Source of the DNA: a virus
Lineage: Duplodnaviria > Caudoviricetes
Direction: 5' to 3' (one strand)
IMG/VR virus record: IMGVR_UViG_3300005662_000021
Span: 32,001 to 96,000 of that record
DNA length: 64,000 nt
The position numbers and the translations under genes were made by a program. A model generated the notes under the pieces. The model saw nothing but the letters and a program-made list of their open reading frames with translations. It made no database searches and was not told the origin of the DNA. This document shows positions 8,446-21,797 of the stretch, one piece after another (the stretch's first letter is position 1; every line of letters begins with the position of its first letter).

Positions 8446-8568
8446 AGTCTTGTGGCGGAATGGTAGACGCAGCTGTGATAACTTCGCTGGAAGGTGAATC
8501 TCCTTTAAAATATTAGCAGGGTCAATCAGTTCTCAGTTATCGTATAGGTTCAAATCCTATCAAGACTA
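8446..8568 (+). ncRNA. tRNA-Leu-scaffold RNA with replaced anticodon arm (copy 1)
   Basis: AGTCTTG/CAAGACT acceptor, TGGCGGAATGGTAGACGC D-arm, ATAGG-TTCAAAT-CCTAT T-arm, about 70-nt insert without 7-nt anticodon loop. Confidence 0.7.
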
Positions 8569-8589
8569 CAAAAAAAAATTTTAAATCTT

Positions 8590-8618
8590 GGAACTAAATG
8601 GTGAGAGAAGGGGTTTAT
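8590..8618 (+). promoter_or_regulatory. ECF-sigma-like promoter GGAACT-N17-GTTTAT
   Basis: 22 nt upstream of tRNA-Ser(GCT). Confidence 0.55.
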
Positions 8619-8640
8619 GTAAATGAATTTAGAAACAATT

Positions 8641-8727
8641 GGAGGATAAAGTAATCAGGGTCGTTACCACCGCCTGCTAAGCGAGTGGCACCAAGTATGG
8701 TGTGGGGTTCGTGTCCTCTGTCCTCCG
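8641..8727 (+). tRNA. tRNA-Ser(GCT)
   Basis: GGAGGAT/GTCCTCC, G73, cgc-CT GCT AA-gcg, long variable arm. Confidence 0.88.
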
Positions 8728-8842
8728 CAAAAAAATATTAATAAGATTAGAGCAGTTGAGTTCATAACTCAAAGGAATGCAGACAGTGGAGATGAGCGAC
8801 CCACCTAATCATTTTAAATGAATAAAAAAATATTCCAAAGTG

Positions 8843-8874
8843 TTTGGAAATTAGAAAATGAAATCGTAATTTTG
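8843..8874 (+). promoter_or_regulatory. Bacteroidota-type promoter
   Basis: TTTG-N20-TAATTTTG, 12 nt before tRNA-like RNA at 8887. Confidence 0.7.
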
Positions 8875-8886
8875 TGATACAATAAT

Positions 8887-9034
8887 AGTCCTGTGGCGGA
8901 ATTGGTAGACGCTATTAAGATAACTAAGGCAGTATATTTTCTCGGAGTAAATATGCAAAGTCATAGTGTTGTACAGATTATCCGAGTGACGAGTACATGC
9001 TTAATTTTTACAGGTTCGAATCCTGTCAGGACTA
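8887..9034 (+). ncRNA. tRNA-Leu-scaffold RNA with replaced anticodon arm (copy 2)
   Basis: AGTCCTG/CAGGACT, Leu-type D-arm, ACAGG-TTCGAAT-CCTGT; attaag/cttaat stem closes about 80-nt insert. Confidence 0.7.
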
Positions 9035-9247
9035 CAAAAAATTAAAAAATAAAAGTTATGGACACACATTATTGGGTAAGATTTGAGATTAGAATTGAAA
9101 CTATCAACAATCAATTAACTTCTGATGAACAAAAAGAAATCTTTGACTATATAAAATCAAGAATTGACGGTAGAGATGACATAGATAGACCTAAAAAGTT
9201 GGATTGTTGTTTTGTCAATATGAGGAAATTTTAGATAAGTTAAATCA

Positions 9248-9377
9248 AGTCCTGTGGCGAAAGCTAAGGGTAGAGTGAAGATTGAATGTTCAGACACTCC
9301 TTAATACTAGGATTGGAGCGAAAGGTCTAACATAAACAATATGTAGCTTAATACGGGTTCGAATCCTGTCAGGACTA
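9248..9377 (+). ncRNA. tRNA-Leu-scaffold RNA with replaced D/anticodon region (copy 3)
   Basis: AGTCCTG/CAGGACT, TGGCGAAAGC, T-arm GGTTCGAATCC. Confidence 0.6.
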
Positions 9378-9404
9378 TTTTTTAAACTATAAAATTAAAA
9401 TATA

Positions 9405-9617
9405 ATGAACGCAAGAAAAGAAATACTTGGAAAAATAGAAGAGTTTGAAAAACGTGTGAAGTATTGGAAAGATAGACAAATAAATTTTAAATGGACAGAA
9501 GAAACTATAAAAGAGGGTGACCCATTATTTGTAATGTGTCAAGATTTTGAACATTCTTTTAAAGAAAAAATATTACTCTTGCAATGGGTATTAGATTTAA
9601 TTAAAGATGAAAATTAA
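9405..9617 (+). CDS. hypothetical protein
   Basis: 70-aa ORF. Confidence 0.55.
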   Translation: MNARKEILGKIEEFEKRVKYWKDRQINFKWTEETIKEGDPLFVMCQDFEHSFKEKILLLQWVLDLIKDEN

Positions 9618-9956
9618 AACAAACTAATATGATAAATAAAATTTCAGCACTTTTTGCACTTTTAATCGGTATAATGTATTTTTCTTTATTTGCATACGAT
9701 ATAGAATATGACCGAGATTTAATGACTTGGTTTTGGCTATTATTTTCCGAAATTTGGTTTATGATTAGTTTACGTTTTTGGATTTTATATGATAAAAATA
9801 ATTAAAAAATGTTAGTAATTATTGGTCTTTTATTTTTGATAATTGGAATCTTATTCTTAATTTTGTCTTACAAAACAAAGAACTCAGACTTGTTTATAGT
9901 TGGAATTATATTTCTAATTGTTCTTTTGTTTGGATTTATATATGGTTTAATAATAT

Positions 9957-10031
9957 AGAGTAGTAGCGCAATTGGTAGCGCACTCGGTTTGGGACCGAGA
10001 GATTTTGCAGGTTCGAGTCCTGTCTACTCTA
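9957..10031 (+). tRNA. tRNA-Pro(TGG)
   Basis: AGAGTAG/CTACTCT; ctcgg-TT TGG GA-ccgag. Confidence 0.9.
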
Positions 10032-10039
10032 CAAGATTT

Positions 10040-19488: not shown

Positions 19489-19561
19489 TAGGAGAAAGTA
19501 AGTCGGTTGGTGTATAGCTTCCTTACGTCTAAAATTTAAGCACGATTACATAATACAAAAA

Positions 19562-19635
19562 GGGGGATTAGCTCAGCTGGCTAGAGCACTTGATTTGCAT
19601 TCAAGAGGTCATCGGTTCGACTCCGATATCCTCCA
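19562..19635 (+). tRNA. tRNA-Ala(TGC)
   Basis: GGGGGAT/ATCCTCC with G3:U70; cttga-TT TGC AT-tcaag. Confidence 0.93.
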
Positions 19636-19667
19636 CTGAAAAATAAACATTGTTTTAAATTTAATTT

Positions 19668-20273
19668 ATGAAAAAATTTTTAGTATTTTTAGTGTTAGTA
19701 GTATTATTGACATCTTGGTCATATACACCCCCACGTAGGGTATTATTTATCGGTGATAGTTTAACCTGTGCAACTGGTGGGTGGCAAGACCAAGTTTCCA
19801 AACATTTTGGATATCAAAGGGTCAATTTATCTAAAGGTGGTGTTAGAACGGATTATATGAGGACAACCCTAAATGCTTGTTTTAAAAACGATTCAGCTTT
19901 TTCAAGTGTTTTTATCTATGGTGGATGTAATGATGCTTTCTCTTATGTAAATCTCCAAGGTGCGGTTAATAACATTCAAATGATGGTTGATAGTTGTAAT
20001 AGAAGAGGAATTGAACCAATTGTGATTGTGGGTTTTAATCCAGCTCAAGTAACAACAAAGACTGTGTATGATGCAGAAACAACCAAGAGATGTGTTGGAA
20101 GATACATTGAGTTTCAAAAGTTGATGGTTCACGAGAAAACTGGTTTAAAAAATTGTAAGATAATTCCAATGGACACTACAATGTTTTATAGTGATACTGG
20201 AGATGGAATTCATTTTGCTGCGAGTGGTCATAGAAAATTTGCTAATTGGGTTATAAATCATATGGAAAAATGA
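19668..20273 (+). CDS. exported SGNH/GDSL hydrolase
   Basis: Signal peptide; FIGDSLT (block I), GGCND (block III), DGIH (block V). Confidence 0.88.
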   Translation: MKKFLVFLVLVVLLTSWSYTPPRRVLFIGDSLTCATGGWQDQVSKHFGYQRVNLSKGGVRTDYMRTTLNACFKNDSAFSSVFIYGGCNDAFSYVNLQGAVNNIQMMVDSCNRRGIEPIVIVGFNPAQVTTKTVYDAETTKRCVGRYIEFQKLMVHEKTGLKNCKIIPMDTTMFYSDTGDGIHFAASGHRKFANWVINHMEK

Positions 20274-20521
20274 AAAAAATATTTTGGTTTTCAATTTTAA
20301 TCACTATCTTTGTATCCTGTAACAAACACCCCACGATAGAACCTGGTGATATTGTTAAGAAGTGTGTAATTGATACGATGTATATTACAGAATCTCCATC
20401 CACAATTGAATTTGGTAAGAGATATAATTATAAAACCGATTGTGATGAATTGATAATGACAAGAAGAAGTGATGTGTATGAAATAGGGGATACAATAACC
20501 TACGTTTATAAAAGAAGATAA
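20270..20521 (+). CDS. putative lipoprotein
   Basis: MKKIFWFSILITIFVSC; start moved to ATG 20270. Confidence 0.65.
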   Translation: MKKIFWFSILITIFVSCNKHPTIEPGDIVKKCVIDTMYITESPSTIEFGKRYNYKTDCDELIMTRRSDVYEIGDTITYVYKRR

Positions 20522-20527
20522 TTATTT

Positions 20528-20613
20528 GCCGTTTTCGCATAGTGGTTGATTGCACTGGATTTGTAACCCAGTTCCGTTAGGACACGTCAGTTCGAATCTG
20601 ACAAACGGCTCCA
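20528..20613 (+). tRNA. tRNA-Thr(TGT) with extra variable hairpin, CCA encoded
   Basis: GCCGTTT/AAACGGC; TT TGT AA loop; tcc-GTTA-gga variable hairpin. Confidence 0.88.
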
Positions 20614-20918
20614 AAAATCCCAATTGATGTAGATAGATTGGGTGGTCAGTAAGCCTAATTGCTCGTATTATGGTTAATATGTCACTATAACCAGGGTTGC
20701 CAAGACCAGATTGTTGGCAGTTTACACGAGATAGTCACTCGCATTTTCTACAAAAGGCAAAAAACACTAGTCCGTTTCTACAGGATGATGGGGCATTGAA
20801 AAAGTGTAGCTAACTTGGAAGATACCCCAAAATTTTTTAAAAAAAACATAGGAAAAAGTGAATAATTCAGGAAGAACAACTATCTTTGTCTTATTAATCA
20901 CTGAAACACATAATCACA

Positions 20919-21149
20919 ATGGCTAAAGAGAAAAAAACAATCCAAGTTGAGTTATTAAAAGAATTCGCAAACAACTATTTGGCTATTCCAATGGTTTCTA
21001 TCCAAGAAAAAATGGGCATTATCACAATGATTGAAAAGGTTCTACACGAATCTAATGCCTATAAAGGTTATATGTATTTAAAACTTGAAGAAAACAATAC
21101 CCCCCCAGCATTTGGTAGTGAGGGGTGGGCAACAAGAAAATATTTTTAA
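20919..21149 (+). CDS. hypothetical protein
   Basis: 76-aa ORF after TATCTTTG motif. Confidence 0.55.
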   Translation: MAKEKKTIQVELLKEFANNYLAIPMVSIQEKMGIITMIEKVLHESNAYKGYMYLKLEENNTPPAFGSEGWATRKYF

Positions 21150-21158
21150 TTTAAAACT

Positions 21159-21431
21159 TTGAATATTATGGCACTTATTTATGTAATCTTGGATAGTAAC
21201 GATAGAATTCCAATTCTAACTGCAAGTAGTATTGAAAAAGCTGAATTACTTTTGAATCAATATATGGGTGTTGAAGGTCCTATATTTGATGAAAGTGTTG
21301 AGTATATAGGTTTTGAACCATTTGATGACAGAGGTTATTATGAAATTTATGAAGGTGAATACAAATATAAGACAGAAGATGGTGAACAAAGATTCATAAG
21401 ATATTGTATGTCATTAGATAGTTTATATTAA
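21159..21431 (+). CDS. hypothetical protein
   Basis: 90-aa ORF. Confidence 0.55.
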   Translation: MNIMALIYVILDSNDRIPILTASSIEKAELLLNQYMGVEGPIFDESVEYIGFEPFDDRGYYEIYEGEYKYKTEDGEQRFIRYCMSLDSLY

Positions 21432-21436
21432 AATTT

Positions 21437-21582
21437 AGTCCTGTGGCGGAATGGAAGACGTTTGGGTGCAAATCCCATTAGCCCAAAGGGGGTTACAATA
21501 TATTGAGGTTCGATTCCTCTACTGGTACGGATGTGTCAGATTGGCGTTGTTGTAAATACAGGTTCGATTCCTGTCAGGACTA
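21437..21582 (+). ncRNA. tRNA-Leu-scaffold RNA with replaced anticodon arm (copy 5), containing a second T-arm
   Basis: AGTCCTG/CAGGACT, Leu D-arm, tttgggt/gcccaaa stem, internal GAGG-TTCGATT-CCTC, terminal ACAGG-TTCGATT-CCTGT. Confidence 0.65.
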
Positions 21583-21683
21583 CAACATTTAAAACATCAA
21601 CTCGTAAAGAAAATGATGGCAAAGAGGTTCAGATAAAGGTAACGAGCTCCTACCTACCCTGAACAAGATGTTTTAATTAATAT

Positions 21684-21797
21684 GGTCAAGTGGCGGAATG
21701 GAAGACGCTAAGTAAGATGGTGTACGTTTGTCCCATAAGAAAGACCGATGCAACAGAAATGTGAAGGGTCGTATAGGTTCAAATCCTATCTTGACTA
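21684..21797 (+). ncRNA. tRNA-Leu-scaffold RNA with replaced anticodon arm (copy 6)
   Basis: GGTCAAG/CTTGACT, TGGCGGAATGGAAGACGC, ATAGG-TTCAAAT-CCTAT. Confidence 0.7.

Follow-up and report, generated by a model that had tools for sequence, protein, structure and literature searches.

A family of tRNA-shaped RNAs with a constant tRNA-Leu-like shell and variable middles in an uncultured T4-like phage and its relatives

Background

Why does a phage keep, inside an array of ordinary tRNA genes, six genes whose two ends read as those of a tRNA-Leu and whose middles, for the most part, do not? The DNA in question is a stretch of 64,000 nucleotides (nt) of an uncultured T4-like virus (IMG/VR record IMGVR_UViG_3300005662_000021, positions 32,001 to 96,000). 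We refer to the whole of this stretch as the window and number all positions from its first letter. The element under study is a set of six tRNA-like genes, named copies 1 to 6, which lie on its plus strand between positions 8446 and 21797. Each is built from a shell, consisting of the acceptor stem, D arm and T arm, and an insert that lies within it. A preliminary description of this DNA had proposed that the copies form one dispersed family, descended from a tRNA-Leu(CAA), in which a constant shell carries a different cargo in each copy; as an alternative it named decoys against host defences that sense or cleave tRNAs.

We report a comparison of the six copies with one another, with their counterparts in related phages and with tRNA-like genes in a large collection of viral and cellular sequences. 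We favour, with moderate confidence, the reading that the copies are true RNAs of tRNA shape which do not decode and which share a chassis that derives from tRNA-Leu, in which the chassis would provide processing and stability and the middle would be the working part. Loci outside the window are designated by L numbers.

Anatomy of the six copies

All six proposed copies are borne out on reading the sequence (Table 1). A 25-nt motif for the 5' end matches the window four times and a 22-nt motif for the 3' end matches it six times (up to three mismatches), where shuffled sequence gives an expectation of 0.00 for both. Every copy has a 7-bp acceptor stem and the discriminator base A73. The acceptor and T arms had been described as near-identical across the copies and so they are, the differences between them being compensatory. 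At acceptor pairs 5:68 and 6:67, copy 1 has T-A/T-A, copies 2, 3 and 5 have C-G/T-A, copy 4 has T-G/T-A and copy 6 has A-T/A-T; at T-stem pair 50:64, copies 1 and 6 have T-A, copies 2, 4 and 5 have C-G and copy 3, whose T stem is ACGGG/CCTGT, has G-C. A Leu-type D arm (A14, A15, G18G19, A20a), together with a T arm and its T-loop, is present in copies 1, 2, 4, 5 and 6, and over positions 7-26 copy 2 agrees with E. coli tRNA-Leu genes at 20 of 20 bases. This part of the earlier account stands; the truncated Leu arm that it ascribed to copy 3 does not, a GC-GAAA-GC mini-hairpin being found in its place.

The middles are another matter. Their lengths range from 43 to 97 nt and most are unlike anticodon stem-loops. 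An arm with a 5-bp stem and a 7-nt loop that holds U33 and a Leu anticodon is absent from copies 1, 2, 3 and 6, and copies 4 (8-nt loop) and 5 (7-nt loop with G33) also depart from this standard. The degenerate CAA loop that had been noted in copy 4 is there, ARAGORN calling this gene tRNA-?(Leu) 'caag' with an 8-nt loop, but it is not the only one of its kind, since copy 5 also has an anticodon-like arm and is called tRNA-Leu(caa) through its inner T arm.

Four of the six copies (1, 4, 5 and 6) pass the Rfam threshold for tRNA, and copies 2 and 3 have no Rfam match, the tRNA model included, even at E ≤ 1. Both at the gathering threshold and at E ≤ 1, tRNA is the only Rfam family found for the six, with no ribozyme, riboswitch, intron, tmRNA or YrlA among the matches. 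CCA is encoded in none of them: the sequence that comes next is a T run for copy 3 and CAA or an A-rich run for the other five. Folded as whole molecules, the copies have z-scores between -0.97 and -2.68, the latter being that of copy 3. Unconstrained minimum-energy folds of copies 2, 4 and 6 show the acceptor, D and T stems; that of copy 2 (z -1.86) has, in addition, CUCGGA paired with UCCGAG in the insert. Taken together, the six copies are at least three kinds of RNA with one common set of ends.

Directly upstream of two copies, 2 and 4, the host-type promoters of the preliminary description are confirmed as motif matches. They belong to a repeated block of about 45 nt which, in the window and in relatives, is joined directly to the first base of tRNA-like genes.

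Table 1. Positions of the six shell copies and of other features of the window
Feature	Position	Strand	Remarks
Copy 1	8446..8568	+	Leu-type shell with 73-nt conserved insert (c1 type); Rfam tRNA 41.4 bits
Copy 2	8887..9034	+	Leu-type shell with 97-nt insert, own promoter; no Rfam match at E ≤ 1
Copy 3	9248..9377	+	Member of a separate tRNA-like family, with the shell's acceptor and T arm
Copy 4	17688..17780	+	Class II tRNA-Leu-like; short anticodon stem, 8-nt loop (UUCAAGGU), long variable arm, own promoter; Rfam tRNA 35.6 bits
Copy 5	21437..21582	+	Shell with CAA anticodon arm, variable arm, second internal T-arm-like hairpin and spacer; Rfam tRNA 32.5 bits over 21437-21582
Copy 6	21684..21797	+	Leu-type shell, acceptor GGUCAAG/CUUGACU, 64-nt insert; Rfam tRNA 33.6 bits
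Decayed 3' half (T arm and acceptor strand) of a seventh tRNA-like gene	17606-17625	+	16 of 19 bases match the shell 3' end
Bacteroidota-type promoter motif	8843-8874	+	Ends 12 nt before copy 2
Bacteroidota-type promoter motif	17647-17678	+	Ends 9 nt before copy 4
Repeated promoter block, about 45 nt	7580-7611, 8843-8874, 16174-16204, 17647-17678	+	TTTGGAA...TAATTTTG or TAACTTTG
tRNAs Val, Cys, Gln, Met, Thr and Arg with long variable arm	11276-11361, 11869-11955, 16824-16915, 18787-18873, 20528-20613, 22011-22099	+	
HNH endonuclease genes	18198-18779 and 22165-22770		Inside the array
TROVE-like gene (DUF2828 plus DUF7788)	5027-6487	+	Near the array
RNA ligase gene	27488-28498		Near the array
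tmRNA, full-length phage type	32994-33374	-	Rfam tmRNA model, 84.6 bits

Conserved inserts in copies 1 and 3

The insert of copy 1 (c1 type) recurs in six other viral loci, every time within this shell, and is retained in phages whose ordinary tRNAs share only about 60-70% identity with those of the window. It has invariant sequence blocks and one site that tolerates extra hairpins, and in its 7-bp closing stem two pairs have changes on both sides.

For copy 3 the evidence is broader, a 19-nt core of this RNA being present in 32 viral loci. RNAs of this c3 type are typically about 120-180 nt long. Their acceptor stems are of their own kind and vary, as does a hairpin at the D position; they also have a D-loop-like GAGUGGGUA segment and a long three-part arm, whose cap is a CUCC/GGAG hairpin with a 14-nt loop that is invariant, after which comes the T arm. 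When 20 sequences are aligned, 96% of cells pair, compared to 31-49% with the partners slid, and 19 of the 28 pairs change on both sides, compared to 3-6 with the partners slid; the covariation score was reached by none of 500 shuffles. Copy 3 is therefore no truncated tRNA-Leu and belongs to a separate, widespread and conserved tRNA-like family. Because this RNA has, in the lineage of the window, the acceptor and T arm of the shell, different tRNA-like RNAs have converged on, or were converted to, the same ends. The earlier proposal of a single family with a single tRNA-Leu(CAA) ancestor was oversimplified in this respect, copy 3 representing another family with acquired shell ends.

Judged by these comparisons, the c1 and c3 inserts are clearly subject to their own selection. 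The inserts of copies 2 and 6 have so far yielded near-identical orthologues only (copy 2, 100% identical in L093 and 98% in L036; copy 6, 98-100% identical in L008, L033, L109 and L089).

Extent of the family

The census of the family was made by scanning IMG/VR with a degenerate 22-mer of the 3' end and by filtering the matches for the complementary 5' strand, the start of a Leu-type D arm and a T arm; RNAs which ARAGORN could not read as tRNA were kept. The scan, before filtering, gave at least 112 loci. At least 88 distinct shell RNAs without an anticodon, 70-212 nt long, come from 66 of the 112 viral loci listed, and the middles of these 88 listed RNAs sort into about 74 groups, with no similarity detectable from one group to another. 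The idea of a constant tRNA shell with variable cargo is upheld by this diversity, with at least two of the cargo types covarying. The arrays in which the RNAs sit have 10-30 ordinary tRNAs, and some of them include a tmRNA, a freshwater-1 RNA or a group I intron as well.

Two features of the shell that were not imposed by the search are nonetheless common to most of the listed members: 84 of 88 have T at position 48, directly ahead of the T stem, and the full Leu D-arm motif is found in 60, with four more that have an extra hairpin in the D loop. A G+C-rich hairpin of this sort, inside the D loop between A15 and G18, was seen in members from L005, L039, L056, L082, L114 and L206; the chassis thus tolerates insertions at a second site.

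The search was extended to 185,579 cellular genomes, where the 3' motif occurs in ordinary cyanobacterial tRNA-Val, in tRNA-Arg of the Chitinophagaceae and Sphingobacteriaceae and in one match that is not a tRNA (L139). Shell RNAs were found in these genomes only on one contig (L122), whose three shell RNAs are those of viral locus L098, and on one fragment of 506 nt, and both are probably mis-binned phage DNA. A cellular ancestor was considered and rejected: the same acceptor and T arm exist together in cyanobacterial tRNA-Val(UAC) and Chitinophagaceae tRNA-Arg(CCU), and in no cellular tRNA-Leu. The exact 3' end of the shell was not found in isolated phages in GenBank, and our search of the literature found no description of the family. 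It is, then, a large and uncatalogued family in uncultured phages, for which Rfam has no entry other than tRNA.

Exchange of middles between orthologous loci

Several relatives are collinear with the window at 90-98% identity. The slot of copy 5, which directly follows a conserved open reading frame (ORF; 21159-21431), is occupied in L030, L033 and L109 by a shell RNA of 71-72 nt with another D arm and another middle, and in L030 both flanks match those of the window. In L033 the orthologue of copy 5 itself lies about 430 nt farther on, behind two other shell RNAs. At the slot of copy 4, L030 has kept the same promoter block and the same shell ends around a different D arm and middle. The alignment of orthologous loci, which the preliminary description had suggested, therefore has the outcome expected of a modular carrier at both slots, with shell ends kept and middles that differ. 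Since different middles occupy the same slots between identical flanks, the shell ends act as recombination junctions.

The promoter block that precedes copy 2 is fused to the orthologue of copy 3 in L006 and L078. The remnant of a seventh tRNA-like gene in the window (Table 1) aligns with tRNA-like genes of L030 and L003 whose 3' ends are intact, L089 has a chimera in which the acceptor is mismatched, and L035 has orphan 5' halves; these three observations point to frequent recombination in short repeats. The site of the intact tRNA-like gene of L003 and L030 is occupied in the window by a 62-codon ORF for a small hydrophobic protein (17421-17609, plus strand), which extends into the decayed 3' half.

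Interpretation and competing explanations

In the reading that we favour, the acceptor/T helix and the elbow of D-loop and T-loop would let the tRNA machinery of the cell, namely RNase P, 3' trimming and the CCA-adding enzyme, excise and stabilise the RNA. The chassis would yield a compact, nuclease-resistant molecule, as engineered tRNA scaffolds do, and the segment that replaces the anticodon and variable arms would be a gene-specific effector. The constant 5' and 3' ends serve also as short homology arms, through which recombination swaps or deletes middles, as the comparison of relatives shows, and the retained identity elements of tRNA-Leu would make charging with leucine possible. At the level of anatomy and evolution, the present comparisons support this modular-carrier reading. 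A further step, which we offer tentatively and regard as doubtful, is that uncultured phages keep an exchangeable arsenal of effector RNAs on one host-matured, perhaps leucine-charged tRNA-Leu chassis, whose conserved ends would be cassette junctions and whose inserts would be traded in an arms race with host defences or translation control.

A number of findings weigh against the favoured reading. Contigs from RNA libraries cover parts of the array, copy 5 included, and such contigs cannot show transcription or RNA ends; the sole evidence of this type for a shell RNA is one metatranscriptome contig of 219 nt, identical to positions 21381-21599 (copy 5 with its flanks), which could be DNA carry-over or an unprocessed precursor. 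The inserts of the listed members are weakly folded on average (mean z -0.74), and the enclosed fraction of the insert is 0.68, compared to 0.65 in shuffles, giving no general closing helix, so many inserts may be neutral filler. The elbow is evidently not indispensable, G18G19 having been lost from close orthologues of copy 2 (L036) and copy 5 (L033). A search for complementarity between the inserts and the 64-kb window gave longest runs of 10-12 nt, no better than shuffled inserts, and the c1 and c3 cores, compared with the 16S and 23S rRNA of stand-in Chitinophagaceae genomes, stayed within the shuffled range (best, 8th percentile).

The census itself must be added to these points, for most members were obtained with an exact 22-mer seed of the 3' end, which inflates the apparent conservation of the shell. 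Members found instead through the c1 cargo or through a TROVE-like neighbour, where the shell is unconstrained, mostly keep AGUC or AGUU at acceptor positions 1-4, and most of them also keep the Leu D arm and an ACAGG-type T arm. When ordinary tRNAs that share an anticodon are compared between the window and these cargo- or protein-selected phages, their identity is only about 60-70%; the shell is more conserved than the ordinary tRNAs of the same arrays. Shell conservation would accordingly be in part, and not wholly, an artefact of the seed. One protein-selected member (L200/L201) has a different acceptor, GGCCAGG, and the true family must therefore be broader than the 3' seed shows.

Might the shell rather than the middle be the working part? 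The RNAs would then be anticodon-less molecules charged by, or soaking up, a factor that reads the acceptor, T arm and elbow, candidates being leucyl-tRNA synthetase (LeuRS), EF-Tu, a tRNA-modifying enzyme or an acceptor-targeting host toxin, and the middle would be mostly tolerated spacer. The published identity set of LeuRS consists of A73, U8:A14, A15:U48, G18G19 and A20a; leucylation can do without the anticodon arm (PMC9976931, PMC2377443). This set is whole in 60-64 of the 88 listed members, and, like the T at the position equivalent to U48, it was unforced by the search. Charging of the chassis is plausible on these grounds. It would not be a universal requirement, in view of the orthologues without G18G19 and of copy 3 without a Leu D arm. 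Further points in favour of an effector shell are its near invariance beside middles that are unrelated and weakly structured, and the acceptor 1-4 AGUC/GACU in five of six cargo-found members (the sixth has AGUU) and in the protein-found L163 and L206. We still consider this explanation unlikely: the c1 and c3 inserts are selected in their own right, copy 3 and the orthologues just mentioned lack parts that such a reader would see, and the tRNA-Leu genes of the phage itself have an acceptor other than AGUC.

That copy 5, and perhaps copy 4, are still-decoding variants of tRNA-Leu(CAA), with an oversized variable region or an expanded anticodon loop, seems to us quite unlikely. ARAGORN calls both genes, the ordinary tRNAs of this array often have long variable arms (Val, Cys, Met, Thr, Arg), and in the anticodon stem of copy 5 two pairs are changed on both sides relative to the L033 orthologue, with the loop UGCAAAU kept (read by eye). 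Set against this, position 33 of copy 5 is G and not U and its D arm and T arm are 96 nt apart, copy 4 has a stem of 3-4 bp and an 8-nt loop, close relatives have unrelated middles in both slots, and the explanation leaves copies 1, 2, 3 and 6 unaccounted for. It is improbable, too, that the copies are decaying tRNA-Leu pseudogenes or debris, their shells being similar through gene conversion or through homing endonucleases or recombination acting on the DNA. The arrays are indeed mosaic, as the remnant, the L089 chimera and the L035 half-genes illustrate, HNH genes are interspersed among the tRNAs, and the T4 tRNA cluster also has a homing endonuclease gene, segB. Covariation, whose absence the preliminary description had associated with decay, is however found, compensatory changes preserving the helices of the shells and of the c1 and c3 inserts; in addition, the family spans phages with ordinary tRNAs about 60-70% identical, and dedicated promoters precede some of the genes. 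Hardly credible, finally, is that the middles are introns, removed to give ordinary tRNAs. In close relatives the anticodon loop of tRNA-Leu(UAA) does contain a genuine group I intron, on the minus strand (L030, about 9098-9380; L109, about 6528-6810, 58.6 bits in Rfam), but the orthologous gene of the window (17321-17405) is intron-free, no intron family, Intron_gpI included, matches the window even at E ≤ 1, the inserts are shorter than the sole group I intron seen (a 192-nt Rfam match to a 253-position model), and their removal restores no anticodon arm in copies 1, 2, 3 and 6.

Comparison with known RNAs

The closest known structure is the bacterial class II tRNA-Leu (RF00005), which is the source of the chassis: it shares with the shell the 7-bp acceptor, A73, a matching D arm, the U48 equivalent and a T arm with a TTCGAAT or TTCAAAT loop. 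It differs in that the anticodon arm is missing from copies 1, 2, 3 and 6 and degenerate in copies 4 and 5, and in the AGUC... acceptor. An engineered tRNA scaffold likewise keeps the acceptor, D and T arms while a cargo replaces the anticodon arm and tRNA processing gives stability; such scaffolds are man-made, whereas the natural family uses one particular chassis, with its cargo exchanged by recombination.

Small stable RNA species 1 of phage T4 (rnaC) resembles the shell RNAs in its setting, since it lies with rnaD in the tRNA cluster of a T4-type phage beside a homing endonuclease gene, and, as folded here, its T arm is canonical (CCGGG-UUCGAAU-CCCGG), its 5' end pairs with its 3' end and its middle is large and folded. 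Unlike them it has no Leu-type D arm, an irregular terminal stem and no Rfam tRNA match; it is a single form and not a family of swappable middles, and no sequence similarity to the shell is visible by eye. The likeness to rnaC, whose function is unknown (PMC3014915), would thus be one of design and context and not of sequence homology.

Both tmRNA and the bacterial Y RNA YrlA also combine a tRNA-like domain with a large non-tRNA part. A tmRNA depends on G3:U70 for its alanine identity, on a tag reading frame and on pseudoknots; in the shell the pair is U3-A70, and no frame is conserved. The identity of the shell RNAs with tmRNA is ruled out by U3-A70, and the Rfam tmRNA model matches the window at a single place, on the other strand (Table 1). 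The ends of YrlA RNA lie in the Ro-binding stem and not in an acceptor. YrlA was rejected as well, for there is no YrlA match at E ≤ 1 in 8300-22200 and the presence of shell RNAs does not follow that of the TROVE gene.

If expression and processing of the shell RNAs are what their anatomy leads one to expect, phages reached the tRNA scaffold long before engineers did, and at scale, with dozens of unrelated small RNAs on one chassis, and the family would be a large unannotated class of phage non-coding RNA, whose genes are at present dropped by gene finders or mislabelled as odd tRNAs. The shell RNAs also offer a concrete test of whether, and why, an anticodon-less RNA is leucylated in vivo, and the c1-type and c3-type RNAs are targets for structure work and partner searches that have the support of covariation.

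The array and its surroundings

The window has 30% G+C and belongs to a T4-like myovirus, encoding a Gp23-type major capsid protein, a Gp20-type portal with an intein and a T4-type terminase; freshwater and lake metagenomes contain near-identical DNA. The host probably belongs to the Bacteroidota, because one ORF of the window has a type IX secretion sorting domain and because the Bacteroidota promoter pattern TTTG-N17-22-TAnnTTTG is in excess, with 16 occurrences compared to 6.4 expected and none of 100 shuffles reaching 16.

ARAGORN makes 24 tRNA calls on the plus strand between 7095 and 23442, and the six shell copies lie within this array; it makes no call of a tRNA-Ile there. A long variable arm, which in bacteria is normally restricted to the tRNAs for Leu, Ser and Tyr, is also seen in six otherwise ordinary tRNAs of 85-92 nt each (Table 1). 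Two weak tandem tRNA matches (10040-10116 and 10130-10206, plus strand; 28.6 and 31.1 bits) have no ARAGORN call. In the 204-nt gap from tRNA-Tyr to tRNA-Gly there is a near-threshold Rfam match to freshwater-1 RNA (19078-19139, plus strand), with 68.7 bits where the gathering score is 72 and an E value of 1.9e-14, and clear matches to this RNA are present in the tRNA arrays of L087 and L233. The relative L033, like the window, has a tmRNA.

A link of the shell RNAs to the TROVE/Ro-like gene was considered and set aside, a shell RNA lying within 10 kb in only 8 of the 80 viral loci that have a relative of this gene, and five of the eight being closely related to the phage of the window. A protein partner encoded nearby was sought by clustering 1,678 ORFs of the shell RNA loci; no family was present in more than 15 loci, the top clusters being a glucosaminidase, a spore-photoproduct-lyase-like protein and a terminase. 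Relatives of the TROVE-like protein itself occur in at least 292 viral contig stretches. The portal gene of the window (Gp20; 45827-48571, plus strand) is split by its intein, which has an HNH endonuclease domain.

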